Translations under genes and position numbers: made by a program | In this document: one piece after another, positions 9,426 to 63,209 of the stretch | How positions within the stretch are numbered: position 1 is the stretch's first letter | Layout of the letters: each line of letters begins with the position of its first letter | The notes under the pieces: generated by a model | Told to the model about the DNA's origin: nothing | The model's input: the letters and a program-made list of their open reading frames with translations, nothing else | Databases searched by the model: none | From: Podarcis gaigeae | Lineage: Eukaryota | Length of the DNA stretch: 64,000 bases | Assembly: GCA_964106915.2 (NCBI GenBank) | Contig: OZ066924.1 | Direction: 5' to 3' (one strand)

Positions 9426-9561
9426 AAGAAATCCATGCTGCAGCATGCTATTGCTGTAATTTGTATCATAAAAATTTTGCAAAAATCAAACACCTGCTAA
9501 CTTTTTTCTTTGCATTAGAGAAGAAATGAAGATAGTATATACATTTGTGCATTAGTCCTAC

Positions 9562-9804
9562 CTGAGTACTGTAGCCAACTGAGGTGGCAAGTGCTGTGCT
9601 AGAATCTCTAATCACCTGAAGACTAATTAAAGTGGTCTTCTTATGGGCCACAGCCAGACGAGACCCCACAGCAAAGTAGATCAGACCCCGAGGAGAGTCA
9701 CTTTCTGGGACTATTATGTAGGCAAATCTGGCACTGTTGTTCAGTTCTGCTCCTGCACCCACTTCGTAGAGCTCCACAAAGAAATAGGTTTCAAATTCAG
9801 GTTC
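9562..9804 (-). CDS. ADGRV1: ADGRV1 exon (~77)
   Basis: 243 nt; EPEFETYFFVELYEVGAGAELNNSARFA...VGYSTQ. Confidence 0.94.
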
Positions 9805-11256: not shown

Positions 11257-11428
11257 ATTATCAGGCTTTATCTCAATAACAATTGTGCATTTTGTTTGAC
11301 CAGCCTTGCAAGTGGCGACCCCTAGGACAGCCAGCAGTTCATTTGCCAGATCTGTGCCATCCTTCTGCAGGACAACAGATGTTCTGTTAAAGGTCACGCG
11401 CCAGGAGATTTTCACATCTTCGAAAGCC
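11257..11428 (-). CDS. ADGRV1: ADGRV1 exon (~76)
   Basis: 172 nt; AFEDVKISWRVTFNRT...IEIKPDN. Confidence 0.93.
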
Positions 11429-12234
11429 CTATCAACAAAGCAAACCAGAATAAACGCAACAACAGAGGCAGACATTCGGAAAACCAAAGCCAGCCCACCC
11501 AGCCATCCACATTTTCTCCTGCATTCCAAATGTAACATTGCACAGCAAAATGTTTCAAAGAAAGTGAAAGACATTCTCTTCATGGCATTACTTCCTAAAG
11601 CTGGTCTGATACATCTTACAGGAGCCACTGGATTTAATTTGTACATGTTGCCTGCCCTTCTTCCTTAAGGTCCCAGGATGGGGTATAGCACAAAATCTAG
11701 CTGCTTTTGAGCTTGATGCTGTAACTTATCCTGGGACTTTAGGGTGAGTGAATGAATGAATGATAGCAATAATACCACCAGCACAATTGATTTGATTCCC
11801 ACTTAAAAATGGATGGCAGCAAGGCTACTTTTGAGCCTGAGATGAAGCAAAGCCAGAACCCACAACCTCCAACCCTAATCAGCTGACCATTGCACCTTAC
11901 TTAGTGAAGTAAGCCATAAATCACAAGTGTGTGCAAAAAGCAAGGAAATTAATTTCACATCTCAGCTATTATGTATATGAGTTAGGTTGGTAGAGTGTTT
12001 AATTCTCTCATTTCTGTTCAGTTCTGGTAGACCGACTGACTGACTTAAATCATATTCTAAATTTATGAGGCAAGTTTGCCAAATTGCAGTAAACTATTAG
12101 AGCATCTTGAGAGCCAAAGATTTATGATAAAAGTTCTATGAGAACCTCTTCTGCTCAGAGCAGTTTCTTTGATTTCAAAACCACACACATTACAGCATGT
12201 GGAGACAGCCCTTTTTACCAGCCGTGGCCTGCAC

Positions 12235-12352
12235 CTGTTTGGTTGCCGGGTAACAATGAGTTGCACCTCCCTCTTTTCGGAATCTTCATCAAGCACAAGG
12301 CCACTTTGCGCCTCTTCACTGAATCCCAGAATTCCATTCTGAAGATCATTTC
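12235..12352 (-). CDS. ADGRV1: ADGRV1 exon (~75)
   Basis: 118 nt; GNDLQNGILGFSEEAQSGLVLDEDSEKREVQLIVTRQPNR. Confidence 0.93.
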
Positions 12353-13288
12353 CTGGGTGAGAAATGGGTCATCCAGAATTATTGAGAAGCACATACTTGC
12401 CAATCAATGTTCCATTATTCAAGAATTCATGCAGAACCTGAAATATCTCTGTGAAACTGAATGAGAAGGTATTATAACATGAATTGTTATAATGTATTAT
12501 AACATGAATTGAGAAACTGAAATATTCCTGTTTTAAAGGAAATCCTGCCGCAGGAATTATTATTATTATTATTAATAATAATACTTATACCCTGCCCATC
12601 TCACTGAGTTAACCCATCCACTCTGTTGTGTGTACACATAGTCACACACTTTGGGGTTTAAGCTACATTAGAATCAAACATTTTTGATATTGTGATCCCA
12701 CTGACTATGCTTGTGAAAAGGTATTTGCCATTTGCCATTTGGCTGTACACAATACTATCATCAAAGTGCAAAACTTGTTTAAAAAAAAAGTTAATTGAAA
12801 CTTTGGACATTAAAAAAGAAAATCACCCACAGTTCTTCAGTGTTTTACAGGCATTTTGGGAAGTTTGACTTATTGCAAGATTCATGGGCCTAGGGTGGCA
12901 TTAAAATATAGAAAAACATAGAGATATAGTGTAGAGAAAAATAGAGAGTACAGCAAAACTGAGTGCCAGAGCAACACAAGGTTTTTAGAACCCTGATCTA
13001 ACACAGGCTGCTTTGTTGATATCACCTTTGAAATTTGAGATTAGTACAATGGCCCTGATTTGCCTTGTAATTTTGGTCCCAGCCCAGAAGGGCTGCTTAT
13101 CCCTACTGTATATCTCATCAGCATGTTCCTTTTTTAAAAAAAATACTACAGTTTTTCTCTAAGCACTTTGCATAAAACCAACAAAAATACAACATTCAGC
13201 AAAACTTCTTAAAATCTAGGTAAGCATAAAGTAATAACCACCTTAACAGTGTTTAATTTATTTATTGATTCTACTAAAAAGCTCCTAC

Positions 13289-14142
13289 CATTGATAATAA
13301 CTGTGGCAAAACCTTGAAAACCATGTTCATCCACAGCTTCTGTAATCTGAGCTCCACCTTGAGGGTCAGAGAGCACAACATAAAACATTTCCTGTCCTTC
13401 AGGCTCATCATCATCAAGAATGCTGACAGACACCTGACTTTCTCGTTCCCCTTCCAGCAATGTAACAGACAGAGTCAGCTCCTCAAAATCGACTCCTTCA
13501 ATTGCCCAGGTTAGATTAGAAATCCCAGAGACAATCTCAAAAGGGAATGTATCTGTCCCACTCTGAGCACTTATTCCACCAAATGTTTTAACAGTGACAG
13601 AAACATTTCCCACAAAACCTAGAGTCCTCCTAATATGAATCAGAACTGCATTGGGTGTGCTGCTGTCGGTGTCTTCTTCAGTGTAAATAATAGCTGGTCC
13701 AAGACTTAAAATTCCATTATGGATAACAATATCACTTGCCAGTAAGGTAACTGATGCAACACTAAACTCTAGGTTCAAAAGTGGATTCCATGTTGGGTCA
13801 AATGGGTGTGTAGCTATAACTTCCACAGATGTTAAGTTCACAAAAAATATTTCATCTTCTTCTGAAATGCTGTCATCAATTATCAAGATTTCAAACACAA
13901 CCTCAGTCTGAAGGCGTCCAAAAACAAGCTCTCCATTATGAACAGGTTCAAAGTCTTCTAGTGGTTTGGCACTTCCTGCAATGGTCTCATAGAACAGTTT
14001 TGTGAGGTTGCTTTGGTAGCCAAAAAGTCTTTGTACATACAATTTGACCATTTGTGCTTCTTCCCTTACTAAAATATTTGTTGAGTTAGGTGCAAACTGG
14101 AAGATTCCCATTGGTTCAATTTCAGCAACGGTGAAGCCTGGT
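13289..14142 (-). CDS. ADGRV1: ADGRV1 large exon (~74), two Calx-beta repeats
   Basis: 854 nt open frame; PGFTVAEIEPMGIFQF...ILDDDEPEGQEMFYVVLSDPQGGA...ATVIING. Confidence 0.96.
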
Positions 14143-14374
14143 CTGGAACAAAAACAAAGTGAAAATTTTATTTGCGAAGACCTACAAAAGGAAGTACAAC
14201 CACAAGCAAAAACAGCTCATCTTACCATTTCTGGTTATCAGAAAAAATCTTTCTCCAGCCTTAGGTAAGAGCATCACCATTTTTTAACAGCTGGAACCAA
14301 CTAAGAACTTGGATGTAATTTTTCAAAAAGAAAAAGAAAAAAAGAGTGTGTATATTGGATTCATCTTAAATGTA

Positions 14375-14603
14375 CAGTCATACCTCGGGATAAATACGCT
14401 TCGGGTTAGGCAAATTTGGGTTGCGCACCACGGCGACCCAGAAGTAATGGAGCACATTACTTCCGGGTTTTGCCACACGCACATGCGCAGAACATAAAAA
14501 TGATGTCATGCGCACGCGCAGACGCGCCATCGCGTCTTGTGTTCCATTCGGGATGCGAACAGGGCTCTGGAACGGATCCCGTTCACATCCTGAGGTACCA
14601 CTG
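14375..14603. mobile_element. Tc1/mariner (Tigger-like) MITE
   Basis: TA|CAGTCATACCTCGGGAT...ATCCTGAGGTACCACTG|TA; CpG-rich interior. Confidence 0.8.
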
Positions 14604-14929
14604 TACTGGAAACATTAGTTCATAAAGAGATTTTCTGTGTGTGTGTTCTTTCTCATATGTATTTCTCCCCCCCCCCCCGCACACGGATAGAGAAATGCTC
14701 ATGTACACATCTCTGTGTAATGAATGGTCGGAAGGCAAGTTATAATGGTTTTTGCAAAGCTAGAAGGTTTGGCTCTGTAAGCTTCCCAAAGGGAAGACTA
14801 CTATGTGAGCAGGTCAAGATTCTTTGAATGAGTGGGGGATATAAGAGTAATTGAATAATGAAATGAGATCAAAGTTTTTACTGCCAATGTCCAGCTCCTG
14901 AATAGCATCTGACCAATAGCCTTTCTTAC

Positions 14930-15065
14930 CTCAGATGAGCTCCACCAGATACATTGCTATGCACAGCTGACAAATGTATAGCAAATGCTTCAGGGATACT
15001 TGGATTTGGTATAACATGGAAAGAAATTGTCCTGTTTGGTTCACCATGAGGAACAATAACAATGC
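14930..15065 (-). CDS. ADGRV1: ADGRV1 exon (~73)
   Basis: 136 nt; GIVIVPHGEPNRTISFHVIPNPSIPEAFAIHLSAVHSNVSGGAHLR. Confidence 0.92.
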
Positions 15066-15797
15066 CTGAAAAGAGAAAGGAAGGAAGTTGCTAAAAGAAC
15101 AATTGAATTTTTAAACAGAAACAACAGTTTCACATTAGATCGTAGTTTCAGATTTGTCTCTATTCATCAGTCAATCACAAAACAAAGGTTTGGTAATATC
15201 AACAGAAGTTAATTTATGTTGTGCTTATTTGGGTGTAAGGTAACTTACAAAGCTGTATTTTGCTGGTAGATGGTGGTATGCCTCTTTACAAAGACTTGGT
15301 TGCTCTTCTTTTAACAAATATTAAAATAAAATGAACATATGCAAATTTGAATAAAACCCTAATGAATAAAAGCGTAACACAAAACTTGAATTTTGAATAT
15401 CCCTGGCAAGACACAGCATTCTCTCTTAAGAATTTTATCCTCTCATCAGATAATGCAAGCAGGAAATGAGCAGTCTTTACAGTTCTATATGATTAAAGAT
15501 AATAAAAGTTATATATGTTTTCCCCCCAGATGTCTGGGCCAGGAATAGAACAGGAAAATGCCATCTTTAACCCAGTGTTCTCAAGAACTTTCTTCTTCCA
15601 ATGAAATAAAACTGCAACAGTCAGGGTCGTGATGTGATGAACATACTTCTGGCCTGTAAGGGGCAAAATCATCAACAGCCTAAGCCTTGTGATTTAAAGA
15701 TTCTATGAAGCAAAAGATGGTGCCAACAGTAGAGCATATGATTTGCATGTAGAAGATCTCAGGTTCTTCTTGTACGGGGCAAAATGGAGGCACTCAC

Positions 15798-15969
15798 CAG
15801 AAGCTGGTGTAATATTGCCTGGTTGAAGGAACTCTGGAATCAAGCCAGGTGGATATCCAGAACTCCACATTACTGTGATGGAGCCATACACTCCTTCCCG
15901 AGTTATCATTGCTTGGGTTGTCCCTGCTGTAATATTTGTAAGTCGTAAGATAGCAGACTCAAAGGCAAC
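15798..15969 (-). CDS. ADGRV1: ADGRV1 exon (~72)
   Basis: 172 nt; VAFESAILRLTNITAGTTQAMITREGVYGSITVMWSSGYPPG...PAS. Confidence 0.93.
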
Positions 15970-16600
15970 CTACCCAAATGGAGAAAGATGTTGTTATTGT
16001 GAGAAATGGATGATTTTACCTGCACATACATGTTATTCTTTAGCAGCAGCCACATGGTGCTTAAAGTAAATTTATACTTTTGTGGATCAAATATTCCTAT
16101 ATGAAGTATTGCTTCTACTGGCAGCATCATACACTCCTTTAACAACCCTAGAATTTTTACATCTGGCTCTGGAACGCATCTAATTCTCACACTATCAACA
16201 CAAGGTATTTTTTTTGCATATACACATGGCAACAAGATACAGTGTTTCACTTCTCTCCTCTGAAGTCTAATGATATCTAAATGAAAATTTCCTGAAGCAG
16301 TTGATAGAATTTGGAACCATATAACAAAAACTATTCATGTTTTTCAAAACCAAATGTATTAGTATTTGATCCATAAAAATCTACATTCTGCTCTTTGCAC
16401 ATGTTGCTTCCTAAATGCATGGCAAGTAAATGCAAGCACATATTGAAACCAAAAACCTCACCAGTTTTTACACAGATACATTTACAAATAATTTGTTCAA
16501 ATGCTTCAACATATGGCAGCCAGTTAATTCTAACAACATTGTGTCTGCATTAATTTTGATCTGCCCTCTGGTGGTACAGATGTTACATGGCTGTACTTAC

Positions 16601-16744
16601 CTGAGAATTGGCAGCTTCTTTGGGAATTGGGACAGAGACTGACATCGTTGTATTTAATATTTTAGGCACAATATTGGCACTAACATTGAACAGGGTTACG
16701 CTGTTCAGTTTCAGAGTAAAATTCAAGCCCAGGAAGAGAAACAC
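16601..16744 (-). CDS. ADGRV1: ADGRV1 exon (~71)
   Basis: 144 nt; VFLFLGLNFTLKLNSVTLFNVSANIVPKILNTTMSVSVPIPKEAANSQ. Confidence 0.92.
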
Positions 16745-17408
16745 CTGAAAGGAGATAATCACTTATCTGTTTTGTCATCAGCTAGGAAATAAGAACTACG
16801 TGTGAGACATTCAAACAAGAAATCCTCATATTGAGAACTGTTTTAAACATGTTGTTTTCTAAAATCTTTCCCAAAAGAATAATAGAATATAATGTTAAAT
16901 TATGAATAATGGCAGATGGTGGCATATTCAAGCCACAACTGTTTTAAGTTCATCTTCAGTATTTATTTATTGCCTATAAGCAGAATACAATTATAATTAA
17001 TCATTTACAGTGTGCAAGGAGGGTTGTTGTAGTAGTAACAAGGTGTTCAGCCATGCAAACCCTCACCCAGTATAGTTCATGAAAAAGCTGAAAGCATAAT
17101 CAGGCCCCAAGGCAGATGTTTCCTCATGGACAGAGACTGTACCCAAGCAAGATTCTGGATCATGAAAGACTATACTATGGGAAACATGCTGTCACTAAGA
17201 AAATATTTTAAATTGCAAGTTTTCTTTGTCCATCAGTACTGCGTATAGAAAAAGCGTATTTCAAAGACTACAATTCAGGGACTGCTATTGAAAGGGCTTT
17301 CCTGGGAGACAATGTTTTCATATGATAAGAGGAAATGCACAGGCAATCCCTCCCTACTGCACATGTCAAACCTCCCTTCCTTTGAAAGGTCCCAGCCACA
17401 ATCTCTTA

Positions 17409-17850
17409 AAGGATATTGACAGACTGGAATGTGTCCCAGAGGAGGAAAGATTGAAGGAGTTGTGTGCGTTTAGCAAGGAGAAGAGATTATTAAGAGGTGA
17501 TGTAATAGCCATTTTCAGATTTTCGAAGGGCTGACACATCAATGGTGGAACAAATTTGTTGCTCCAGCAGGCAGGAACCAAACCAACAAGTGCATATTAA
17601 AGTGGTTTAAGACTTAACATCAGGAAGAACTTTGTGATGGTAAAATTTATTACTAGTTTTTACCATCCATTACTATTCAGTAATGGAACAGACAGCATCA
17701 GAAGATGGTGGATTCCTTAGTTAGAGGGTTTTTTAAAAAAAAAACTAGAGGCCAGATGGCTACTGACCAAGGATGCTACAACAGCAGATTTCCTGCCCAG
17801 GCAGGGATTAGGATCGATGACCTCTGGGGTGCCTCTCCACTCTGATTCTA
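17409..17850 (+). mobile_element. CR1 LINE 3' fragment (decayed ORF2 C-terminus and 3'UTR)
   Basis: KDIDRLECV/EERLKEL..FS.EKR.LRGD.IA.F motif typical of CR1 ORF2; ends in a gatgacct...ctctgattcta tail. Confidence 0.8.
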
Positions 17851-17986
17851 GAAAATGGGACTCTTACTTTTCTAGAAAGCTTTGGGTTGCAGCCAAACTT
17901 ATAATGGACAATGGTCACAAAGTATTGCTATGCTGCTTACTCAACTCAGTTTCAAGGACCTCACAAGGTAAAGAGAAATTACAGAC

Positions 17987-18460
17987 CTGGGTATGTATTG
18001 GCACAGTCTTCACTCCAAAACTGGAACCTGCTTTAACTAGCAGATGTCCCACTGCATTGGTTGGCGTGACTAAGCTTTCTTCACTAGGAGATGAAACATG
18101 ATACTCCACAATCACATCTCCAAAAGTCCCCGCATGACGAGTTACGTTAATCTGGATGTGCCGGCTCAGATCGTGCTTCACCAGCACTGACTGCTTTTCA
18201 GAATACAAGGCAAATACTCCATGGGGATCATCATTTGCCAAAACAGTGAATCCAGAAGTGCTTTTCTCCTGATCCACATCAGCTCCTCCTTCCACTGAAG
18301 TAAGCTGTACCACATAATGCTCATCTATTTCAGGGACATCATCAGGCAATAAGAATATAACAATCTCAGATGTCCTTTGCTCATCAGGAATCACAGCAGA
18401 GCCACTGGTGGAAAGGAAATCATCTGTAGTATCTGAATCACTACTTAGCTCCCAGTGAAC
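17987..18460 (-). CDS. ADGRV1: ADGRV1 exon (~70), Calx-beta
   Basis: 474 nt; VHWELSSDSDTTDDFLSTSGS...LPDDVPEIDE...ANDDPHGVF...PIHTQ. Confidence 0.96.
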
Positions 18461-18548
18461 CTGAAATAAAAATCTTTGATCAGTAAGTTCAAAAAGTGGT
18501 GAGACCTTCATATCTTTTTACATATTAGACAATTACTTTTAAAATGAA

Positions 18549-18584
<36 letters not shown>
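18549..18584. repeat. (ATT)n microsatellite, likely the tail of a minus-strand LINE fragment
   Basis: About 12 units seen. Confidence 0.9.
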
Positions 18585-19491
18585 TATTTGATTTGTATAT
18601 ACCCTTTAATCAATGATCCCAGAGCAGTGTACGACATTAAGAAAATAATTCATACAGCATAATAATAAACCATAATGCACAGCATAGTAGCAAAATACTC
18701 ATAATAACAGTTCCCCTAAATATGTCCCTCTAAAAGTAATAAGCACATTCCTCTAAGAAACATTTAAACTGATTTATTGTTTATGCTTGACATAGTTTTC
18801 CAAATCATTCCAACAAAGAAATACAGTATGATTGCCTATTATGCACATTTAACTTGCACAATTTCAACCATATGTGGCTGAAGGCCACATAAGTTAAATG
18901 CAAGCAAGGGGGAGATATTAAAAAGGGTTTTCCTGCTGCAAAAAAGAGTTTTTTAAGGTTTTTGCCTTGCTTGGGAAGTAAGGTCCAGTCCACGTGGCAA
19001 ATCTGGGATGCTCCTGTGAGATCTTGCAGGAACTCAGACAGCCCTGTGAGATCTTGCAAGAGCATCTTGGGGGCTCCAGAGCTGACATGTGGAGGCGGCT
19101 TTGTTCCCCAAGCAAGGCAGTGAGCTTAAAAGCGCTGGGGAAACCCAATGCCAAATGAGCTTCTAAGCTCCCTGCTTTGCACTGTGTCCAGAAGCACCAG
19201 GATGCTCATGCGGCGACAGTTCCAAGAGTTTGAGTATATGTATTTTTGCAGATACATGGAACCCTTGTGTAAGATGTGATCATACTGTAAATTTAAAAAC
19301 CTAAAACATTCAGAAACTTTAGTTAAGAACTTTACGAATCTACCATACATTGCACAATGTCTCCATAAGATCTAATTTCACCTTCATAGTCAAGGGTGAG
19401 ATCAAATGTGCTGCTAAAGACTTCAGATTACACTGTTGCAATTTGTAGCAAAAGTCGAAACCACCAAATAAGCACCAAAGGTTGAAACTAC

Positions 19492-19641
19492 CGTAATGTT
19501 CCCCATGGTGCCTTGAATTCGCATTATGAATAGCACGATACGTAGTGGCCCTTCAGATGCTGACGGCTCCTCGTAGTACTTTGGGGATAATGATTCAGGG
19601 GCAAACTGCACAATTCCATTGGGATCTCCAAACTTCAGAAT
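19492..19641 (-). CDS. ADGRV1: ADGRV1 exon (~69)
   Basis: 150 nt; ILKFGDPNGIVQFAPESLSPKYYEEP...GTMGNIT. Confidence 0.93.
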
Positions 19642-20743
19642 CTAAAAATGTTTTCAATAGCATATAATTGACTTTCCTTGCTTGTGGGACAAATAAAAAT
19701 TAAACAGTTTAAGCAACAATTCATGAGATATTAATTCCATGTTTACTTATTCCCTTTAAAAAAAATGGCATAAGATCCAAACAACAATGCAACTAATCTT
19801 TTATGCTGTGACTTTGAGCTTGTTTTTGAACAAATAAACAAACCTAAGCATGGCAGCTAATTGTTTTGTTAAGGTTACAATGAGAGCAGCATGTAAATTA
19901 CAAAAGGACCTGAACTGTGATAATAGGATTTTGTGTGCATATTCTGCAAATGAAATCAAGTGTATTGACTTCACACAACAATGGTCAATAATAATTTTGG
20001 ATGCTGATAAACATAAATTATTAAAAAGAACAAATTAAATGTTGGGAAGGTTAGAATGACTCAGTTCTTTGGGGGAAGAAAAGTTTAATAAAACTGAAAT
20101 GGGGAAAATTATTGATCCACTCATGTTCAGGAAGGAGAAACAGTAGAAGAAATGTTATCTAAGAAGAACAATGGCCAAGATACAGATGACTGTATCAGTG
20201 CCTGCTTCTCAACAGCTTGGTAGGGCAAGATGCCCACTTATTTTCACTCAGCTGCAAATGCCTCCATATTTTGAAAAGAGGTATTGGTGGGGAGGCTGTG
20301 GGGCCATGAGGTTAACCCCACTCCCATGGTCAATATGCACATTGGCCACACCATGTCACTGCCAATGCAGCAAGCATGAGAAGGGGCTATATGCATGCAT
20401 GTTCCCAGAACGCCTCAACACAAGAGGAACTCTTATTTCAGCCAAGATTCGCCTTCCTAAGGAGGAGCTTTATTCATCAGTATGTGCATAGAATAGCTTC
20501 AGATTTTGGTCAAAGCACAGATGGACATGGCTCTTATGTGTGCCAGTAGTGGGAGTGGGGCTAGTCAGGTATCCCCACAACTTTCTCACACATTCTTTAA
20601 ATGCAGGGAGGAGGAATGGCTGAGCCTTCCTCATGTCGCAAAGCTTTCAACAATTCCTGGGCAGGAAAAACACTGAGCAACCCAACCTGCTTTACTACAG
20701 AAACAGTCCCAATTTTTTTATTTTTTTTTAAAAAAAGATTTAC

Positions 20744-20983
20744 TATTAGTGTAATGCTGGCAGCCTTTGGATCCAGTTCTGTTTCACCCTTTGCAATGCT
20801 CAGTCGAACAATGTAGGTCTCCTGAACTTCAACTTCTTCATGAGGATAAATTTCCAAGGTGATGCTTCTCAGACCACCTTCTGCTTCTTCAAAATAAAAG
20901 GATCCGTTCACCGGGTCACCAATGTCACTGTTCAGAGCAGGTAAAATTGTCTCTGAGTTAGGTCCTAAAATATCCCAGTTAAT
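20744..20983 (-). CDS. ADGRV1: ADGRV1 exon (~68)
   Basis: 240 nt; INWDILGPNSETILPALNSDIGDPVNGSFYF...ASITLI. Confidence 0.94.
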
Positions 20984-21608
20984 CTGTGAAATATATAAAT
21001 TCCAAAGGTAGCATTTGTTAGTATTATAAGCAAGTTGCAATAGAACAATTATGGTAGCTAGTACCTTTTACGAAAGACATTAACTGGAGGATGGCTGGAG
21101 AGTTGCTCTATTTCCCATGTGAGTATTGGCAAGAGAAGCACAGTCCTTCTAACCTCAAGTGGCTTAACTGATCTAACAACCCTTAGCCCATAGCAGTGAG
21201 TCCCATTTTACTCATGTTTTTTTTTTTATATCCCACCTTTCTGTCCATGAAAACCCTCAAGCAGTTAATGATGTATCAGTTATTTTTTAAAATGTAAAAG
21301 ACAGCAAGCAATACACCAATCTGCAAAACTGGAAAGCACACAAACCAGAAAAAAACAACCACAGTAAGAGGGGTGGGGAATGGATAGCCAAATTACCACC
21401 TACTCTAAATGCAGGTTAAAATAATCTTATCACATTCAGTAGATGCGTAGACCAGAAACAATTCCTGTATAATCTGGTTTACAATCTTATACGACACAAT
21501 CTTATAGAAAAATGAGGGAGTGTGAAATTTAATCTCATTCATTTCATAATAAAATGCATCCTTACAAAAGGAATTCACCAGCATCTAATTTAAGACGGGG
21601 AGCCATAC

Positions 21609-21828
21609 CTGAGATTCTCCCACCAAGCCTCCAGTTCTTTCCAGGACCAAGGACAGCGTCAATGACATATCAGGATTGGGGATAATTATTCGGCTTTGGT
21701 TGAGGAACCGGACAATCCCATGCGGAGAGTCGCTCTTAGCAATAGTTATCTGGGTCACTAGGTGGAGCCCAAGGACTGCTCCCCCACTAGCACTTATTAG
21801 CTGGATTTCAAACTGCTCAGCATATTCT
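21609..21828 (-). CDS. ADGRV1: ADGRV1 exon (~67)
   Basis: 220 nt; EYAEQFEIQLISASGGAVLG...ERTGGLVGESQ. Confidence 0.94.
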
Positions 21829-22218
21829 CTATTCCAGAAACAATAGAAAAGATCACATTTTGCTACCAAACATGACCTCTCTGTATAGGCATCATTAAAA
21901 TCTGAATGCCCAGCAATTCACCAGAACATTTGCATATATTCAATATTAATTATGGGTGGTTTACACTGTAGACATAAGAAAGGGAAAATAACTGCCAGTG
22001 CATGATCTGCATTTATATATGTAATTGCAGCTTATTTAACAGACACATAGAAACTCTATTTTTTAATTTCTTCTTCATAAGAGAAATTTACAGGAAACCA
22101 GAAAAGAGACTGAGATAATAATGGTTGTTCTCTATTTTATTCTTGATCAATGTTTGCTTCACAGCTAAAAATTTTGTTTACAGCAAAAAAAAAAGTTTAT
22201 CAGCAACTTTTTAAAACG

Positions 22219-22340
22219 AAGTTTTTAAGCAGAGGTTGGATGGCCATCTGTCTTTGATGCTTTAGTTGAAATTCCTGAATTGCAAGGGTTGGATCAGATG
22301 ACTCTTGGAGTCCCTTCTAATTCTACAATTCTATGATTCA
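22219..22340 (+). mobile_element. CR1 LINE 3' end
   Basis: ttttaagcagaggttggatggccatctg...gtcccttctaattctacaattctatgattc, a CR1-type terminal repeat. Confidence 0.75.
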
Positions 22341-22416
22341 AAAGATATTCTCATATATTTTTAGACCTCCTTATCCATTTCCCTGTCATATGCAAAGAAG
22401 TCTTCAACATCATTAC

Positions 22417-22618
22417 CTTTCATCGTCATCTATGATTAAGACACTGATGAAACTCTGGTTTTGGCCATGATGAAAAATGACTGAATTATTTATGATACTG
22501 TAGTCAACACCGCCAGGAAGAGCTGAAATACTTCTAGATATGAAATCTGCAGTCACTAAGCCGTAAGTCCCACGTCTTCGCACCACTGGAATCATTATCA
22601 ATCCAACATCTTCTTCCA
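22417..22618 (-). CDS. ADGRV1: ADGRV1 exon (~66)
   Basis: 202 nt; VEEDVGLIMIPVVRRRGTYG...IIDDDER. Confidence 0.94.
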
Positions 22619-23511
22619 CTACAAAAAATGAATTCAAAGTGAATGAGTGACATTTTCTAAATTGCATGCTTGTATATGGCCATATCATTTATTCTTTTAC
22701 TTGAGTTCATATGTTTGGGGAGGGGGGTACTCAGGCAATATTAGGAAATTGCCCCCAAATGCCACCAGTGGTAGGACAAAAATTGGAATTGCAAAGTGAT
22801 TATTTCACAAAGACATTTGTTGCATATCCTTGAAAGCTGATTATTTCTACTTGTTTGAACCACAGAGGGAGAGAATCACTCAGAAGGTCCCTGTTGGTAC
22901 ATTTCATTTTACATTTCTCACAAGCTATTTAACCCATAGAGATTCATGGAAAAGCTTTGCATTTTCCAGTGCAGCACACAGTGAGGCGCTGCTATTGCTA
23001 CTTACTGCTGCTCTCAGCTGCTGAACTGGGCTGAACTCCCACCATCCCAAGAGCCAAGGGCATCTTGTGAGGAACAGCAGCAAAACTTTCTGCTTTAGGG
23101 GTGATAGTATCAATGGGACATCTGTAAGAGTACCTGTCACAACAGTTATGTTTTTGTTTCCTGGTGCTAAAAAACAACTTTAAACTCTGTTTGGGGGAGA
23201 TGTTTAAGTGCACTTTTGCATTCTTCTGTAGCTATTGATGCCACCAAAGAAAATAAATAAGGAAATCGAAACCTAAAACAAGTACAAGATTTTGAATGGA
23301 TAGTACTGTTTTATTATATTTTTATTACATTAATATTCTGCTTCTCCCTGACATGCATATCATGTGCATGGGATTCTGAAAAGACCTGCAGAGGTCCAGC
23401 AAGAGTGCTCAACCATCTGTTTCCACACCAAGCTCAGAGGTCATCATTAACAATGATAAAGTCATTCATTTGCTCTTTAAAATGCAGCATGATGCTATAT
23501 CCTTAACCTAC

Positions 23512-33115: not shown

Positions 33116-33857
33116 CTGGAAAGAAAGCAGTATTTTAAATTCAGCTTGGGACAGTTATTCAGAGCACTATAATGATTTCATTTCTGACATAGAAAAGCCG
33201 GGATATCAAACCATGGTTTGAAGTTGGTTTTAAAATCTGGCATGTTCCAAGCCTAGCAGCCGTAGCTTTCCTGGTTCAGATGAAACAGGAAACAATGGTT
33301 ATTTATAGATTTTCTTGTTTAATTGTAGGCCTGCTCCCATGTTACACTGTACAAGCTATCTCTGCACATGTACAAGTGTTTGTGTGAAAAAGCATACACT
33401 TGTTGATTTTTACATGTCAACTGCTGAGTGCATAGGTGCACAGACTATACACTTGCTGAATGCTGCATGTGAATAATTGTATGACTGCACAGCTCAGCTA
33501 TTTGGGGACACAGACTGTGAACTCAAATGTACTCGTGACTTGGGCAAAAGGTAGAACAAAGAGGTCGCATGTGTGGTTGAAAGGCTAGTGCAGAGGTGAT
33601 CAATGTGGGGACCTCCAGATGTTGAACTCCAGCTCCCATCAGCCCCAGACAACATGACCAATGATCAGGGATGATGAAAGAAACATCTGTGGGACACCAC
33701 ACTGGCATCCCCATGGCAAGTGATATCTCAGCTTCTTAAGCTGAGATATAAAATGCCCCAATCAGCCCAACCATCTACAAACAAAGTCAGTTTCAGATTA
33801 CTGAGACCAAGAATAACGACAGCATGGGGGCATTGACATTTTTCAGTTTGTTCTCAC

Positions 33858-34444: not shown

Positions 34445-35304
34445 GCCTAGTTCATACATCACCTCAGTCCAGTCTCAGTGAGCAGAAACCAAGGCGGTAA
34501 TCCTATGCATGGGAGTAAGCGCTATCAAACAGAGTGGAAACTATTTCTGAGTAATCACTGCAGCATGAAAATCTCAGCAGTTATAAACCATACATTCAAA
34601 GCACATTGATTCTCCCAAAGAATCCTGGGGATGGCAGTTTACCCCTCAAAGAGCTATAATTCCCAGGATTCTCTGAGGGAAGTCATGTGCTTTAAATATA
34701 TGGTGTTTACAAAGTCTAGGACTCCAAACAGTAATGGGTGCCCTGACCCAACTGTAAACAAGAATTGGGCAGCTGGTTTAGGAGTCCAGTCAAATAAATT
34801 AGAATAAACATTTTCTTCTATTTTGAGCTTTGTAAACCTGGCTGAATTTTAGAACGTGTGTTATCAAAGTGCATCTTGAGAACATAGGATTGTATCCCAT
34901 ATTAGTCATAAAATTAAGGGTATGGCTAATTGTGTTCTGTTAATTTCAATGGGCCTGCTCTGAGCAGAACTTGTTTAGATGCAATCTGTAGGGCACTGAT
35001 TGTGAACTTTGTTTCCCATCATGGCCTCATGCATCACAATGCATCCTCCCACACTCTTATCACATGTGCTTCATGTACAAATGAAGTAGATCAACAGAGC
35101 ACAGACAGAGGCGGCAGCTGTGGAGTAACAAGCAACAGAAGTGAATTTGCCTATTTGCTAGATGATCTGGCATGATGCATCTTTTGCCAGTCATCAGAAC
35201 TGTCATTTACTAGGCCCAGGAATGTGGGTAGAGTTTGGCTGCTTAGTCACATCAACCATGGAGAGCTACATGAGTGAAGGAAAAAGATATATTAAAATAC
35301 TCAC

Positions 35305-44183: not shown

Positions 44184-44876
44184 CTAAGGGGGGGGGGGAA
44201 TTATGGCGTCAATGACTTAAGCACTTTTAGTACCATGCATGAACAATTGTTTTAAAACAAAAACATTTATTTAATGTTATATTAAGGTGAGATGAAGGCA
44301 GGTTCCAAAGGAGATTCTCTGTACGTAAGAAGAGAATGTTGGATCAGGTCAAAGGTCCATCTAGATCATCATTCTGTTCTCACAGCTGTCAACCAGCATG
44401 CAGTAATGGTTGGTGAGGCAGAGCAGAGTTGCTCACCTGCTTTTCCAACACAGAATTACTGCCAGTTGCTGAGAGGGAGGGGTACAAGGTGCAGAGAGCT
44501 AAGCACAGTGCAGGTGCACTGGCAGAGCCAATCCAACATTCCTGCCACTGTGCTCGCACCACACTGAGCTCTCAGTGCCTTGTGCCTTAGCTTCTCAGGA
44601 ACCAGCAGTGGTGCTTGATGTTGAGAAAGCAGGTGAGCAGCTCTGCCCTGCCTGCCCTGCCCCACCAACTGGCAACACTTCAAGCCCGTAGAGATCCAGG
44701 TTCGAGAAGCCTGTGGCCCAGCAGATGTTGTTGGACACTGGCTCCCTGTTACTGTTGTTGCAATATTTTGTATGTCCTGAAACAGTGCTAATAGTAATCT
44801 GGATTATTCCCGAGTGCTGTTATTTCCATTTTATTTTCACATGGGAACACTTGGTTTTATAACAGTGTGTATATAC

Positions 44877-50424: not shown

Positions 50425-50558
50425 CAGTGTTTCTCAAACTTGGGTCCCCAGCTGTTGTTGGACTACAACTTCCATCATCCCTAGCTAGCAGACCAATGGT
50501 CAGGGATGATGGGAGTTGTAGTCCAACAACAGCTGGGGACCCAAGTTTGAGAAACACG
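50425..50558. mobile_element. Palindromic hAT (Charlie-like) MITE
   Basis: CAGTGTTTCTCAAACTTGG...CCAAGTTTGAGAAACAC; long self-complementary arms; 8-bp TSD atttagag. Confidence 0.9.
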
Positions 50559-54327: not shown

Positions 54328-54651
54328 CAGGGGTCAGCAACCTTTTTCAGCCATAGGCCGGTCCACCGTCCCTCAGACCATGTGGTGGGACTATATATAT
54401 TTTTGGGGGGCGGGGGATGAATGAATTCCTATGCCCCACAAATAACCCAGAGATGCATTTTAAACAAAAGCACACCTTCTACTCATGTAAAAACACCAGG
54501 CAGGCCCCACAAATAACCCAGAGATGCATTTTAAATAAAAGGACACATTCTACTTATGTGAAAACAGGCTGATTCCCAGACCGTCTGCGGGCCAGATTTA
54601 GAAGGCGATTGGGCTGCATCCGGCCCACGGGCCTTAGGTTGCCTACCCCTG
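54328..54651. mobile_element. hAT (Charlie-like) MITE with an internal tandem duplication
   Basis: CAGGGGTCAGCAACCT...AGGTTGCCTACCCCTG; perfect 8-bp TSD ctctaaac; gccccacaaataacccagagatgcattttaaa occurs twice. Confidence 0.9.
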
Positions 54652-55072: not shown

Positions 55073-57217
55073 CTAGGAATTAAAGAAAGCAGAACACAAT
55101 AGTAACCACAAGGAAAGAGATGCAAATTTTGTGTATAACCCACCCGGAACTTCTCCTGTACAGTCCCCATTGCTGCAAACAGAAGTTTTTCAAGTATACC
55201 AATGTGCTCTTAAGCAGCTCCAAGTCATTATAATGGCAAATGTGCATGAGAAGTTTTGGGTGAGTTGTTTCCACTGCCGGGATTGCTCTTAAAAGACCCT
55301 GAAGCATGCAAACTGTAAATAAAATAATCACAGTAGCATCCTTAAAAAAACAAACTATCAGGTATATATAGAAAGCCTTGCTTTAGACACCCTATTAATG
55401 AATTCGTTTAGTGAAAAAAGATCCAGATTTGTTGGAATGCTGAATCATGAAAATCTGTCTTCAGAAAGCAGCAGGGAAATATATAAAATTCATGCAAAGA
55501 ATTTAAGTATAAACACAACTGAAAGCAAATTACCAACAGAACATGCAAAAAAAAAAGCAGTAAGAGGGAGAAAAATAAACTCCTGTCAACTAAAAGAAAA
55601 AATAAATGCTGTATGTACTAGCTGTCTCATGTGATTACTTAAAGTAGTTTTTACAAGAAAGATACATATAATGTAACATTGCACTGTAGTGGAATGTTAC
55701 ACAATGCATGCAGAAAAATGCTTGGAATTACCTGTAGATTCCATTTATTTCAGTTAAAACTTACATGATAACATCAGTGTTACAATTTTCTTTGATTTCA
55801 GAGGGAAGAGTTCACAAAAAGTTAATCGTTACCTGCGTTTGACATATCATGTGCATAGATATTGCTCATTCATACTTTAGTATGTGAATATAAGTATAGA
55901 TGTAATGCATACACATCTAATGTACATGTAATACATATAAGACTTGAAGTATATGCCAGGAACATAAGTTTTCTGCACAGCCATGACAGTGCTTTTGATA
56001 GAGTAGTTTTGCTAATAGGACAACATGGGTTAATATGCATAAAAAAATTCCCCCTCTTCTGATATTGTAAATAATTAGCATCTATGTTGAAATAATCAAA
56101 CAAGTATAACCAATGTGAATAAATAAACCAAGAACTGTATACACTGTGGCGTGCCCAAAAAGTTAATATGCAAAATTTACATTTTAATTTAAAAAATAAA
56201 TAATGGTTTTGACTTGCAGAAAACCTATGGCCCTGTCACAATTATGCTGCCTATGTATTACTACTGCATTTTTTCAGGTGAGCAAAGTTTCAGTTTGCCA
56301 GTACATACAGTATTGCATGGGTCAAAGGAAGGAAAATGTAAATATAGTAGAGAACATTTATTTTACACATTAGATACATAGAGCATCCTATTGTGCAAGT
56401 GTAATTGTTATGAACTATTTTTATATTATTGAATATGTGTTTTTTCCTGAAACTCTTAAATTCTGTTTTCGTTGCAAATAAAGGTGGAGGGCACAGTATT
56501 CATCTTTTAAAATTTAACTCACAGTTATAACCAGGTTGTATATATATGGCTATTCCTTACCCACACTGTGAAAACACATGGGGTACTAGGATAGAGCAAA
56601 CTGAGAATCCAAACTTAGTTGTTATTTTTTAAAGTCAGATGTGATTGAGGGGGTATAGGGAGGAATGGAAAAGCCTCTCCGGTGATGGAAAGGAGCTTCA
56701 CTGTGGGGGAATCATGCCTAGCACAAAGGCTCCAAGTATGCTCACAGAAAGCCCAGGAGGCATAGATCTACTGAAGGCAGTGTTCATGAGGGAAGTAGGT
56801 GTGAAACTGGGGGCTGCAAAAGCATTCAGTGGTCTAAGAACTACCAGTTTCAATGTCTCCTTGTATCCCCATTGTTTGGGGCCCCAAATGACACCAGAGG
56901 AAGCATAGGTAGCTTTCTTCATGTTAGAGAAGGGAAAACAAAAACTGCTCTCTCCTCAGTCCTACTTTGGCCAGAGTGGGTCAACAGCACTCTGGTGGTG
57001 GCAGTGTCCCTGCCACGGATATACACTTAAGATTGTTCTACTTCAGTAGAAAGACAGGCTAATTGCTGGCAAAGCTTCCAGATTTCAAAACTGAAGGGCG
57101 GGAGGGAAGGCTGAACTGGATCTTCACAATAGTTGAGGAATTAGTTTCCCTGCCCTTCTCAATCTCCATAATCTTGCAGACCACAATTTAATTTTTTTGT
57201 TTTACTAAAAGTTATTA

Positions 57218-57574
57218 GGTAAAGGTAAAGGTACCCCTGCCCATACGGGCCAGTCTTGCCAGACTCTGGGGTTGGTGCGCCCATCTCACTCAAGAGGCCG
57301 GGGGCCAGCGCTGTCCGGAGACACTTCCGGGTCACGTGGCCAGCGTGACATCGCTGCTCTGGCGAGCCAGAGCCGCACACGGAAACGCCGTTTACCTTCC
57401 CGCTAGTAAGCGGTCCCTATTTATCTACTTGCACCGAGGGGTGCTTTCGAACTGCTAGGTTGGCAGGCGCTGGGACCGAGCAGCGGGAGCACACCCCGCC
57501 GCAGGGATTCGAACCGCCGACCATTCGATCGGCAAGCCCTAGGCGCTGAGGCTTTTACCCACAGCGCCACCTCC
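57218..57574 (-). mobile_element. Sauria SINE, near full length
   Basis: tRNA-like head GGTGGCGCTGTGG...GGTTCGAATCCC on the minus strand; (ACCTTT)n tail; TSD gttatta. Confidence 0.92.
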
Positions 57575-58317
57575 GTTATTACTGTACTACAATAATTACT
57601 TCCAAGCACACATCTCATGTATAACTGCAGAACTGGAAGTGATAAAACAACATGTGCTATAGGACACTGCAATGAAAGTAACAAAGGGACAATTTTCAGA
57701 TTAGATGGTTGTAATTTGCAATATTGCCAGAATATAATAGTAAGTATGCAGTCACTGTTTTAATTTTGAATGATCAAAGATGGATTGTATATATTTATCA
57801 CCAAAATAATAATATAACTATTAAAAAAAAATCAAACTATCAATTCACATCACAAAGTGACACCTTGTTTAATGTTATCCAGAATTATAAAAGCGTTTGG
57901 GAACCTGCACTAGGAATTCTAGGAACTATTTGTAGAGATATCAGCAATAAGCCCACATACAATTTGCATAAATGCAATGCATGTCTTATTCTAACTGTTT
58001 GAATTTTTCTTTTCTGCCCAGAGTAGCAGTTTTGGAGGAGAAACAAAATATAATCTCCACCCCCCGCCTCCACCCCATCCCAATAATATTTTGTACTGTA
58101 CTGAAATACATTTTATCCTATTTGAGAATTTTGCACCAATATCAAAAAGCAAATTAATAAAAGTGTAAAAAAGTCCACAATAGCAAAATACACAAATAAG
58201 ACTCAATATAGTTCAACACACCATTATACCGCACTATTTTATATCATTTGTAATAAAACACATTATGATACAGAGTGTAGCTGGCAAATTGTCTAAAAGA
58301 AGACTACAACAGATGGT

Positions 58318-58531
58318 CAAAACAAAAAAAATTCCTTCCAGTAGCACCTTAAAGACCAACTAAGTCAGTTCTTGGTATGAGCTTTCGTGTGCATGCACAC
58401 TTCTTATCTGAAGAAGTGTGCATGCACACGAAAGCTCATACCAAGAACTGACTTAGTTGGTCTTTAAGGTGCTACTGGAAGGAATTTTTTTTGTTTTGCC
58501 TATGGCAGACCAACACGGCTACCTATCTGTA
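58318..58531 (+). mobile_element. Penelope-like element remnant (inverted pseudo-LTR palindrome)
   Basis: Perfect 88-bp inverted repeat (58318-58405 / 58411-58498) with a 33-bp tail; 15-bp TSD actacaacagatggt (58303-58317, 58532-58546); contains a hammerhead core. Confidence 0.85.
58405..58440 (+). ncRNA. Minimal type I hammerhead ribozyme motif (PLE-type)
   Basis: TAT-CTGAAGA-A-GTGTG(CATG)CACAC-GAA-AGCT-C-ATA: CUGANGA core, stem II, GAAA, palindromic AGCU stem III, UC cleavage site and a short stem I. Confidence 0.7.
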
Positions 58532-58908
58532 ACTACAACAGATGGTGGTTGAGATCAGATTTCATGTTTACATTCGGCCCTTCCGACATTACAAATATGA
58601 ACAGCATTGGGCACTGTCCAGTCACAGGTGTTATTACAGACTGAAATTAAAACATGTAATGTCAGGGACAGTCCTCAATGTGTCTGATGGCGTTTGCATG
58701 ACAATGAGCATGTCTATGGGTTTTCATATACATGAGATCTAATAAAAAATCAAAGCCTCCACAGGCTACTTCCAGTCCCTTAATGAAAGCAGTATTGGAC
58801 CATGATAATGAGCAGTATCCAATTAATGCATCCTGCCCATGCAAAGATTTCTACATGTGCAATGGGGCTTTCCACTGTTCAACCTCCCCCGGCACACATA
58901 CCCTAAAC

Positions 58909-59044
58909 CAGTGTTTCCCAACCTTGTGCCTCCAGATGTTTTTGGCCTACAACTCCCATCATCCCTAGCTAGCAAGACCAGTGGTCAGGGATGATGGGAG
59001 TTGTAGGCCAAAAACATCTGGAGGCACAAGGTTGGGAAACACTG
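58909..59044. mobile_element. Palindromic hAT (Charlie-like) MITE, related to 50425-50558
   Basis: CAGTGTTTCCCAACCTTG...CAAGGTTGGGAAACACTG; perfect 8-bp TSD ccctaaac. Confidence 0.92.
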
Positions 59045-59106
59045 CCCTAAACCACCCCCAAATCAGCTTCAGAGAACAGATTTGTGTAGGTGCAAGGGGA
59101 GGAGAG

Positions 59107-59183
59107 AATCACAGAATTGCAGAGTTGGAAAGTATCCCAAGGGTTACTGAGTGCAACCCCCTTGTAATGCAGGAATCTCAACT
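59107..59183 (-). mobile_element. CR1 LINE 3' end
   Basis: Reverse-complement match to the CR1 tail at 22219-22340. Confidence 0.6.
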
Positions 59184-60089
59184 TGATCATACATGGCATA
59201 ACAGAATAGAATGGGAGATAGGGAAGTTCCCACTGAATAAGTGGAAATCTTGGGGCACATTACTCAGCTCTACTTAAGGTACAACCCGGTGAGTAAGAAA
59301 AATGGCCAAGTTAGGTATGCAGTGCAATCATTTGAGGAGTTGACATTTTATCTGCTTTTATTACACCAAAGATTGATACCATTGGAAATAGTATTGTGCA
59401 ATGCAGAATTACAAGGGCACATGTTAAGAATTCCCTCATTCTAATGGATAAAAGGAGTATGTTTTTGAAAGATAGTGTGAAGGAAGGGATTATTATTATT
59501 ATTATTATTTTAAAAACTGTCATCTACATAATTCCGAAATCATGGCCTGCAGTCCTCAAAACCATTTCTCGAGAATAGCTCCCTCTGCTTCAGCTGAATT
59601 CCTTTAGGATAAACAATCTGAGGATCAAGTCATCACTTGATGATGGAATGATGACCTTCATTCCCTCATCAACATGGGTTGATGCTCATCATAACAGGTT
59701 AGTGCTGGAAGCAGTGGAAAGGTGAGTCTCTGAGATAGGTGTAAAAAACTGAGGAAACCGTAAGTGCTACCAAGATGGCAGATCGGTTGAGTAATAAGGT
59801 TAGGTTCTGCCTGTTTCAGGGAGGGAGCACCTTAATGGGCTGGATTTTCCTAATATGGAAATATGTTGATGACCCTAGCACTAATTAATAAAAATGAAAG
59901 CTTGACACCAAAGGAAATGTTTAGCCATTTCAGAACTTTTTGAATATCTACTGATTATTCTTTTTAAATGAACGTGTCTGGATAAAGCTAAAGTACTCTT
60001 AAACTTTAGAACCTGGAAGCTAAATGTTCACTGCGGTCTCTAAATTCTATAATAAAAAGTTATTTAGCTCCACAGTAGTGTGTGCGTCT

Positions 60090-60090
<1 letters not shown>

Positions 60091-60131
<41 letters not shown>
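60091..60131. repeat. (GT)20 microsatellite
   Basis: Directly seen. Confidence 0.97.
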
Positions 60132-60133
<2 letters not shown>

Positions 60134-62263
60134 GAAAACATAGTTGGTGGCAAACAGAGTCCATGAAGGTCACCATGCAGTTTGTGTTAATTCCTTGTGC
60201 TCATTGATGGATCTTCTTAGCATGTCAGGTTACAGCTGCTTTGACATGCTCATGAGAGCCATTAATGTGGGAAAGAACAGTAAGAAAGCTCAGGCATACA
60301 GCAGCACAGAATCAACAATGGTGACCTATGTGGAAACTTCCCAAAAACGGTAATGATGACCTTTCACATACAAGAGATATATACATAGATTAGACAGTTG
60401 ATATAACAGGGCCTGCAGAATCTTTAGTAAAAGTGCATCTAATGCATGCAGATTTTTGCTTAACAGTTACTGTCGTTCTTTCCAAGAGAAGGCAGCACTG
60501 TATCAGGAAATGCATCAAAAACATGAAAGAGGCATGCAGGTCCCCCAATCCACATTTTAAATACTAACAAAACAAGATTTGGTCAATTCCAACCATTACA
60601 GGCAGAGAGGGTGTGCAGTTAGGAATGTCAATCTCACATTAGTTTGACTACACATGACTATTTTCCACCAGTGGTGACATAATATTGCTATTTTTCATTC
60701 ATATGCTTGACAAGGAATTCTATACATGTCTGCTTGGAAGTAAGTTTGAGTACAATGTATGCATGTATAGGATTGGTACACCACCACCTCTGTTTGTATT
60801 CCACTGATGATGATTAGAGGCACTGGCTGTAGATTTGCTCCCAGGAGTTGGCATGCAGCCAAAAGCATAGTAAATTGGAAACAAATCCCATTGACTTAAT
60901 CCATTGGCTAAAGTGGTCTAGGGTAGCACTGTGAATTCAAGAGATAGTACAAACAGCTAACATAGGTGTTTGTGCTCTGGATGCTGTTACCTTGCCACTA
61001 ATTAGGAATGTTCTTCCTTATGGATTAGAAATACTCCTTTTAAGTATAACAGCAGTTTATAGCTACTGCTGTCATTATTGTTAGAAAACAGCCAAGAGTG
61101 CCTTAACTGTACTGATTATCCATAATGAAATTAAACAATTCATATACTTAAGGGTCACAGACAGCTGCAAACAAAAGCCTCTTACAGCAAATCAAATATA
61201 AAGACCTAGCTACTCAGCGCCTTCAGCGAAGGAAAGAGATTCCAGACATAGGCATAGCATAGCAACACCATGGCAGAATGCTTTCTTAACATCAGTGGGA
61301 GTCACCTAGAAGCAAAGGTGTTCAGGAAAGAAGTGGGAAAGTCTCACATGGCCCAAGTAAATGGCTAAATATTGCTGGAAGCAATATTAAGTTGCTTAAT
61401 CCAAGAAATCCAAGAAATACTTGGACTTTAGATTGGCTCACGTGCAATTGAAGAGCCATGAATGTGTCCTTACTAACACTTAAGTGGCCTAGCTTATTTA
61501 TATATATTAAATATTTCCAGAATTTGTTGTGAAAGAGATAAAGAAATTGAACAGGGTTTTTAAACAGAGGCTTGCACATGAACTGTAAGTAGCAAAACTC
61601 GGGCCAAAGTAGATGTCAAATGAATCCCTGCATTTTAAGGTGCACATTTTTATTGCAAATAGAAGTCCCTAGTGGGATTGATGATTATCAGGACTGCAGC
61701 AGGTAAGGAAGGTGGATTTAGCAATTTTCTCTCCTGTTGCAAGTTCTGAGGAAAATGCTTTCTACAAAGAATTCATTCCATTGGCACCCACTATGGATTT
61801 CCTCCAAATATAAATTATTATTATTTTTCTGAAAAGTGGTTTTCATCAGGACCAGAGCAAATAAGGAAAGGGTAAAACTTCCCCTTCCCACCTGTTGTAA
61901 TCCCAATAATTAACACACATGGCCTGGCATGGCTGCTATTTGCGTATTGCAAAATGTGCAAATTAAATGCAGAGATATATTTTGCATCATGTTTAGTTTG
62001 ACCTTGAATCTCTACAAAATAGTGGACAATGAAATTGTTTCTCCCCTTTCCTCATTAGGGATTTTTAAAAAAGTTTATTGCTTGTTTGATTTCTGATGCA
62101 CTATAGAAATAAATGATATATGTGGCTAAAGACCCTCTCAGAATTTTCTTTTCTCAATTTCAACCTATGTGGTAAATCAAAGTAAGCCATTACTGTGAGA
62201 AAGCATAGGCAAATGGATTGATAGCACACAGAGTGAGAGTAGTGAAAATGGAGAGGAACCCAC

Positions 62264-62473: not shown

Positions 62474-62847
62474 CTGACACAAAAAAATGAAAGGCTTTTA
62501 GACAATCCGTGCTACCACTGTTTCAGCAGTAATCATCCCAGTGCTTAAAATAAACAAACTGAACAGCTTTCTGGGGGGGCTAACACATAAGCAGAGCAAA
62601 TTCAGTTCATGGTACTATTTAATATGTTTATTTATTTTACCTTTGCTGATTAGTCATCCGAGTTGTTTTCTTTTACTCTTCTTGACACAGAGTCCCAACC
62701 CAGTGAGAGCTTCAGTCATCTAGACTAATCTATTTTATAGCATTTTAAATATACTGCAAGCTGCCTCAGGGTCTTCAGTAAAAAGACAAGGTATATACAT
62801 TTCAACCAAATAAATATCTTCATATTGGCCATATCTGCTAATATATA

Positions 62848-63209
62848 GGTAAAGGTAAAGGTACCCCTGCCCGTACGGGCCAGTCTTGACAGACTCTGGG
62901 GTTGTGCGCCCATCTCACTTAAGAGGCCAGGGGCCAGCGCTGTCCGGAGACACTTCCGGGTCACGTGGCCAGCGTGACAAAGCTGCATCTGGCGAGCCAG
63001 AGCCACACACGGAAACGCCGTTTACCTTCCCGCTGGTAAGCGGTCCCTATTTATCTACTTGCACCCGGAGGTGCTTTCGAACTGCTAGGTTGGCAGGCGC
63101 TGGGACCGAGCAGCGGGAGCGCACCCCGCTGCAGGGATTCGAACCGCCGACCTTTCGATCGGCAAGTCCTAGGCGCTGAGGCTTTAACCCACAGCGCCAC
63201 CTGCGTCCC
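62848..63209 (-). mobile_element. Sauria SINE, full length
   Basis: Starts GGGACGCAGGTGGCGCTGTGG on the minus strand; B-box GGTTCGAATCCC; (ACCTTT)n tail; perfect 13-bp TSD ctgctaatatata. Confidence 0.94.

Follow-up and report, generated by a model that had tools for sequence, protein, structure and literature searches.

The 214-nt insert that lies, with its target duplications, at 58303-58546 of the window (the whole 64-kb stretch of DNA analysed here) is very probably a stub of the hammerhead-bearing end of a high-copy Penelope-like repeat, and we give a probability of about 60% to the fuller account in which the mirror half of this Penelope-like stub was primed in the course of two-ended priming. 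An inverted, 5'-truncated and tail-less element end (58318-58405, minus strand) stands head to head with a direct, likewise 5'-truncated element end of 127 nt (58405-58531, plus strand), and base 58405 is common to both. The inverted arm mirrors 58411-58498 as an exact reverse complement (88/88 by sequence comparison) and lacks the CUGA box; a 5-nt loop, ATCTG (58406-58410), separates the 88-bp arms, and the direct part ends in a one-sided tail of 33 nt (58499-58531; 31-36 nt if short target matches at both ends are allowed), so that arms, loop and tail together make up the 214 nt. On either side lies one copy of an exact 15-bp direct repeat (58303-58317 and 58532-58546, no strand assigned), which shows no extension in the window; the last 2 bases of the left copy, in inverted orientation, and the first 3 bases of the right copy match the family sequence too. 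The first-pass annotation of this DNA had given the perfect arms, the loop, the tail and the duplication, and all of them were recovered at the positions it noted. The direct part contains a stop codon in all three frames, and the 64-kb window holds no second copy of the insert. The stub is a dead-end intron passenger without an open reading frame. A DNA-transposon (MITE) origin of the 214-nt insert was discarded because the tail leaves the right end without an inverted repeat.

On the plus strand the direct part opens with a minimal type I hammerhead motif (58405-58440), as judged from a descriptor match, folding, family depth and a comparison with a turtle motif. Stem I (58405-58407/58438-58440) has 3 bp here and 4 bp in the family, the CUGANGA core occupies 58408-58414 and is followed by an extra A after core position 9 (58415), and stem II (58416-58420/58425-58429) opens with the G10.1-C11.1 pair. 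The GAAA box (58430-58433) leads into a palindromic helix III remnant (15.2-16.2, 58433-58436), and C58437, after which the earlier annotation had predicted cleavage, does stand at the cleavage position of the motif, a UH cut site. The descriptor CTGANGANGN{8,24}CGAAANNTH has one match in the 64 kb, at 58408-58437 on the plus strand, against a mean of 0.03 matches in 100 shuffles (3/100 with a match), and with the core boxes intact the call of a minimal hammerhead holds. The features present at 58408-58437, namely CUGANGA, GAAA, UH, G10.1-C11.1, the extra base and the palindromic 15.2-16.2, are all listed for minimal type I hammerheads in PMC4209133. Such motifs are expected to have a stem I of about 4-5 bp, and several minimal-hammerhead rows in Figure S3 of that paper also have one of 2-3 bp. 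Compared by eye with the Chrysemys picta bellii motif in that figure, from whose PDF text the GAAA column was recovered separately, the family form is identical at 29/34 non-loop positions and the insert's own copy at 28/34. Four of the five differences between turtle and family make up two compensatory pairs, in stem I and stem II, and the fifth is the cleavage base; the extra base after position 9, G10.1-C11.1 and the palindromic helix III remnant are common to the turtle motif and the family. Loop II differs in length, 4 nt here against 7 nt in the turtle motif; the stem I of the insert is only 3 bp long, and the turtle row of Figure S3 carries no mark of a recognisable Penelope-like element. 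An Rfam search over the motif, which the first-pass annotation had proposed as a check, returned no hammerhead model: none appeared at E <=10 on 351 bases, the motif alone (58402-58452) gave 0 matches at E up to 10, and at gathering level the window as a whole gave no match. The 30 matches on the 351 bases, mostly miRNA and leader models, were all below their gathering scores; we ascribed the miRNA matches to the long hairpin shape and dismissed them. Judged from its sequence, the minimal hammerhead is a genuine feature of the family. We note that stem II and its loop (58416-58429) form a perfect 14-base palindrome, which could also pair between two RNA copies.

Contigs from 4 of the 24 listed runs were aligned to 57950-58900: X1 and X3, from two studies of organism A, X4 from organism B and X6 from organism D. 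An empty site is present in X4 (record 18) and in X6 (record 24), where 58302 is joined to 58532; these contigs skip 229 bases, the sum of 15 and 214, and retain one copy of the target, and their flanks differ from the window by 2.0% (X4) and 2.2% (X6). Both outer junctions of the insert are carried by X1 and X3, in which the left flank runs 25 bases (X1, record 1) or 23 bases (X3, record 9) into the inverted arm and other sequence runs from within the tail into the right flank. Position 58302 is G in the window and A in X1 and X3, where the duplication has 16 bp. The 15-bp repeat is a true target-site duplication, and the two outer junctions together with the empty sites show that the insertion, head to head as it stands, is real and younger than the splits from B and D. 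The young age and the target-site duplication that had been read from the window are borne out, sites without the insert, which it had been proposed to look for, occur in related organisms, and the insertion is recent and lineage-limited. The perfection of the arms is itself a weak clock, since zero differences in 88 bp has a probability of 0.5-0.7 at 0.4-0.8% divergence, the level within organism A. The 31-36 nt range given for the tail draws on loose contig ends at 58316, 58318, 58534 and 58535, and those behind 58534 have a common consensus start in X1, X4 and X6. We also weighed whether a longer or less symmetric insert could have been misassembled into the perfect palindrome or its centre, given that none of the listed contigs spans the centre, that the 5-nt loop rests on the window assembly and that assemblies often break at the inversions of Penelope-like elements (PMC8557442). 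This we hold to be highly improbable, as both outer junctions occur head to head in two samples from two studies and the centre is asymmetric and enters family sequence at one base, which a mirror artefact would not give.

The repeat to which the insert belongs is extremely abundant. In each of the four runs 9,553-23,078 contigs were aligned, and the summed insert depth amounts to 5e4-1.7e5 times that of the flank, a figure of contig depth and not of copy number. Since these contigs extend beyond 58405 on the upstream side and beyond 58534 on the downstream side, the insert is part of a longer element. The loop at 58406-58410 is ordinary element sequence, for family contigs match the insert from 58405 and have different letters upstream of it. 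At 58404 the family has G in 62-67% of its depth, which gives the 4-bp stem I, and at 58499 it has A in 99%. The G of the GAAA box at 58430, which lies within a CpG, is A in 14-20% of family depth, so that many genomic copies have a decayed core; the cleavage base is U in 6-16%. At 58366/58450 both arms have the same minority allele, the other letter being the family majority (55-72%), and from this common allele we infer that both arms derive from one source. Across the family we found 285 different inversion joints. In 10 of the 15 that are listed the direct part is 46-70 bases longer than the inverted arm, and in the other 5 the inverted arm extends beyond the 5' start of the direct part by 7-95 bases, with the proviso that most sides of the listed joints are shorter than 30 bases with unknown letters between them, that such joints are often repeat noise and that later deletions may have contributed. 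A further joint goes back from 58493 to 58405 and represents a partial tandem. The 285 joints and the loose ends before 58405 indicate variable 5' truncation among copies, evidence of moderate weight given the short sides. We also observed complementarity between five family bases upstream of 58405 and the first bases of the hammerhead core (58408-58412); the family bases come from a consensus of loose ends whose agreement is about 0.4. The predicted 5-bp hairpin could block the ribozyme or serve as a point of fold-back.

The diversity of joints bears on a further reading, that the insert is a copy of a discrete non-autonomous palindromic mini-element, transcribed as such, moved in trans and recognisable by a fixed junction. 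Non-autonomous derivatives of Penelope-like elements are known (PMC8557442; 10.64898/2026.07.22.740005), many of the listed joints fall on 58405 or within the 3 bases ahead of it, and even 0.3% of so large a family could amount to many copies. The landing at 58405 is, however, partly forced by the reference used, and the other copies show the 285 different joints. Contigs that pass 58404 with a letter other than G there make up no more than 0.21-0.43% of the depth at 58430, an upper bound on the share of the family that can pass the insert's junction. Moreover, the RNA of such an element would hide the hammerhead motif in an 88-bp hairpin, and the window has just the one copy. We therefore consider a discrete palindromic family very unlikely, and a small subfamily with one common junction may exist. 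Of the two alternatives offered by the first-pass annotation, the truncated and inverted Penelope-like integration is supported, and the tiny discrete ribozyme-bearing family is not, in view of the many junctions and of copies that continue past both ends; the junctions, which the annotation had proposed to compare among copies, differ widely in the aligned contigs.

Five structural features of endonuclease-bearing Penelope-like elements are present in the insert and its family, in support of the initial identification as a Penelope-like insertion. The inverted 5'-truncated copy adjoins the 5' end, the 33-nt tail is one-sided and falls within the 30-40 bp expected of such tails, the target-site duplication is confirmed by the empty site, the hammerhead sits in a terminal repeat, and variable 5' truncation and partial tandems occur among copies, the last with moderate weight. 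Counting against this identity, the scanned collections gave no reverse transcriptase or GIY-YIG reading frame linked to the repeat: a longer relative with an open reading frame was found at 0 loci in the metagenome contigs and viral contigs scanned. The turtle motif, the closest published one, being unmarked as Penelope-associated in Figure S3, and the lack of a hammerhead match in Rfam also count against it. Pfam reported no reverse transcriptase or endonuclease domain in 54 of the 71 open stretches of the window. In a literature that lacks most subscription journals and repeat databases, and going by titles and the starts of abstracts, we found no paper that treats this family, whether in lacertids, Podarcis, turtles or squamates, and none on twin priming by Penelope-like elements that bears on it; we therefore claim no novelty for the family.

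How the inverted half arose may be reconstructed as follows. The element endonuclease would nick both target strands, 15 bases apart. With a 3-base match, the end of the bottom strand would start reverse transcription on an uncut RNA, from its tail end. The end of the top strand would prime from a second site, some 33 bases further inward at the tail boundary, where the left target end, given the family A at 58499, could make 5 pairs, including one G-U. This use of target matches (3 bases on the right, 5 pairs on the left) rests on one locus. Both cDNAs would be copied from the same source, would end close to the 5' border of the hammerhead and would be joined head to head over one common T, 58405, so that the mirror half was likely made during the same single insertion. 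The template would have been uncut after 58437, because the predicted cut site lies within both halves. The start of the inverted part at the tail boundary counts for two-ended priming. Biochemical precedent comes from a Penelope-like protein of the anole, which in vitro cleaves and extends both strands, uses uncleaved RNA as a template and has two reverse-transcription start sites that bound the tail, and for which a dimer is predicted (PMC11167929). The anole element in that report, which belongs to another family, starts without homology to the cut DNA, whereas the insert shows short matches.

The same Penelope-like stub could alternatively have gained its mirror half by fold-back self-priming, in which the first cDNA stops past the hammerhead core, turns with a 5-base loop, is copied back and is resolved at the tail boundary. 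The near symmetry of the insert suits this course and counts against two-ended priming, as the centre is offset by only 6 bases; the minority allele common to the arms, with the single source that it implies, is equally in keeping with fold-back. Palindromic junctions have been read as self-priming in PMC3846280, and the family letters upstream of 58405 that pair with the core start offer, as a 5-bp hairpin, a possible turning point. The 5-base loop could, however, be closed by no more than one base pair, the end of the arm at the tail boundary is not explained by fold-back itself, and among the 9 rows listed no insertion has a palindrome centred on the family hairpin. Furthermore, in 5 of the 15 listed joints the inverted arm exceeds the direct part, an outcome that copying by fold-back cannot produce. 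We consider fold-back possible and on the whole unlikely, and we favour two-ended priming. A more speculative extension, doubtful at present, is that the family may propagate mainly in the form of tiny non-coding stubs, the two halves of which would each be primed on its own from one of the target strands, with 5' ends that pile up at the hammerhead border and an upstream 5-bp hairpin that could hold the ribozyme off. If this were true, the thousands of junctions and empty sites would form an in vivo record that settles the origin of the inverted ends of Penelope-like elements. A census of family junctions could test two-ended priming against fold-back. The single locus matters little in itself, being one copy of a very common repeat with a published layout, and it serves as a clean and dated case, the site being empty in relatives whose flanks differ by about 2%.

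The insert lies in an intron of about 7.2 kb on the minus strand (55073-62263, with GT at 62263 and AG at 55074-55073), more than 3 kb from either flanking exon. By alignment, some 30 stretches between 7507 and 62522 of the window on the minus strand resemble exons of a Calx-beta/EPTP gene; the Pfam search of 54 of the 71 open stretches reported Calx-beta (4) and EPTP (1) on that strand, and a PDB search with one exon matched only Calx-beta-bearing exchangers. From the pair of domains we take the host gene to be ADGRV1-like. As the motif is on the plus strand and the gene on the minus strand, the hammerhead is antisense to its host. No RNA run is among those listed for the insert, which speaks neither for nor against its expression. 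Folding of the full insert places the probability of the hammerhead pairs at about 0, with a cost of 51.8 kcal/mol to force them; when the direct part is folded by itself, the probability is 0.9 for stem II and 0.03 for stem I. Stem I is cut to 3 bp because the inversion junction falls there. With this 3-bp stem, a core buried in the 88-bp hairpin and the antisense position, the ribozyme at the insert is, on these models, probably inactive. The first-pass reading of a ribozyme was thus right about the motif and overlooked the short stem I, the burial of the core and the antisense position. For the motif to be an active ribozyme that affects the host transcript, one could cite the intact core boxes and the stem II that is predicted to form when the direct part is transcribed by itself. 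Against this, transcripts of the host gene would come from the strand without a CUGA box, stem I is scarcely predicted to form even in the direct part, and the insertion is recent and lineage-limited. Single minimal motifs failed to cleave and dimers cleaved at a low level in PMC4209133, and the anole motif needs protein (PMC11167929). We regard such activity as barely conceivable, and an intact-looking hammerhead core in a stub of this kind need not equal an active ribozyme.

Other repeats were observed in the window. A second perfect palindrome, with 58-bp arms, a 20-nt spacer and an 8-bp direct repeat on each side, lies at 58909-59044 and has relatives at 50425-50557 (86%) and 33612-33676; we presume it to be like a hAT-type MITE. 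Two 362-bp copies that are 94.8% alike (57216-57576, in the insert's intron, and 62846-63206) look to us like Sauria SINEs, a repeat type that points to a lizard or snake. Three older imperfect palindromes (18951-19131, 34587-34704 and 44416-44653; 67-70% self-identity) are, from their sequence, probably decayed DNA-transposon relics, and a 71-bp tandem duplication is found at 54433-54566 (1.9 copies, 92% matches).

The layout of the insert, an inverted truncated copy with a one-sided tail and a duplication, is a described one and not unusual, as PMC8557442 and PMC3846280 attest. In the former a typical Penelope-like insertion has an inverted 5'-truncated copy and a one-sided tail of 30-40 bp, and the origin of the inverted ends is there called still undefined. 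The insert shares with Pen2a_Av (PMC3846280; PMC8557442, Figure 2) the head-to-head inverted copy on the 5' side, the flanking target-site duplication and the hammerhead in the repeat, and the tails are of similar length, 33 nt here and 31 bp in Pen2a_Av (PMC3846280). The duplication has 15 bp here, in contrast to 8-10 bp in the rotifer examples, and the insert holds only 127 nt of the direct end and no open reading frame, unlike insertion units of the Pen2a_Av type. A small, non-coding nature, a type I hammerhead and a relation to Penelope-like elements are also characteristic of the non-LTR retrozymes (PMC7229834; 10.64898/2026.07.22.740005). These are head-to-tail tandem repeats, however, and those of PMC7229834 have canonical hammerheads, whereas the insert consists of a single head-to-head unit whose motif is minimal; a tandem retrozyme was accordingly rejected, and the 12 tandem-repeat rows contain no such array. 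Poseidon PAc of Anolis carolinensis (PMC11167929) is a squamate Penelope-like element whose hammerhead lies close to its end and whose tail is delimited by two reverse-transcription start sites, with both strands primed and an uncleaved RNA template. By eye, the letters of the PAc stem-loop in supplement 1 of that paper show no likeness to the insert, which makes PAc another family.
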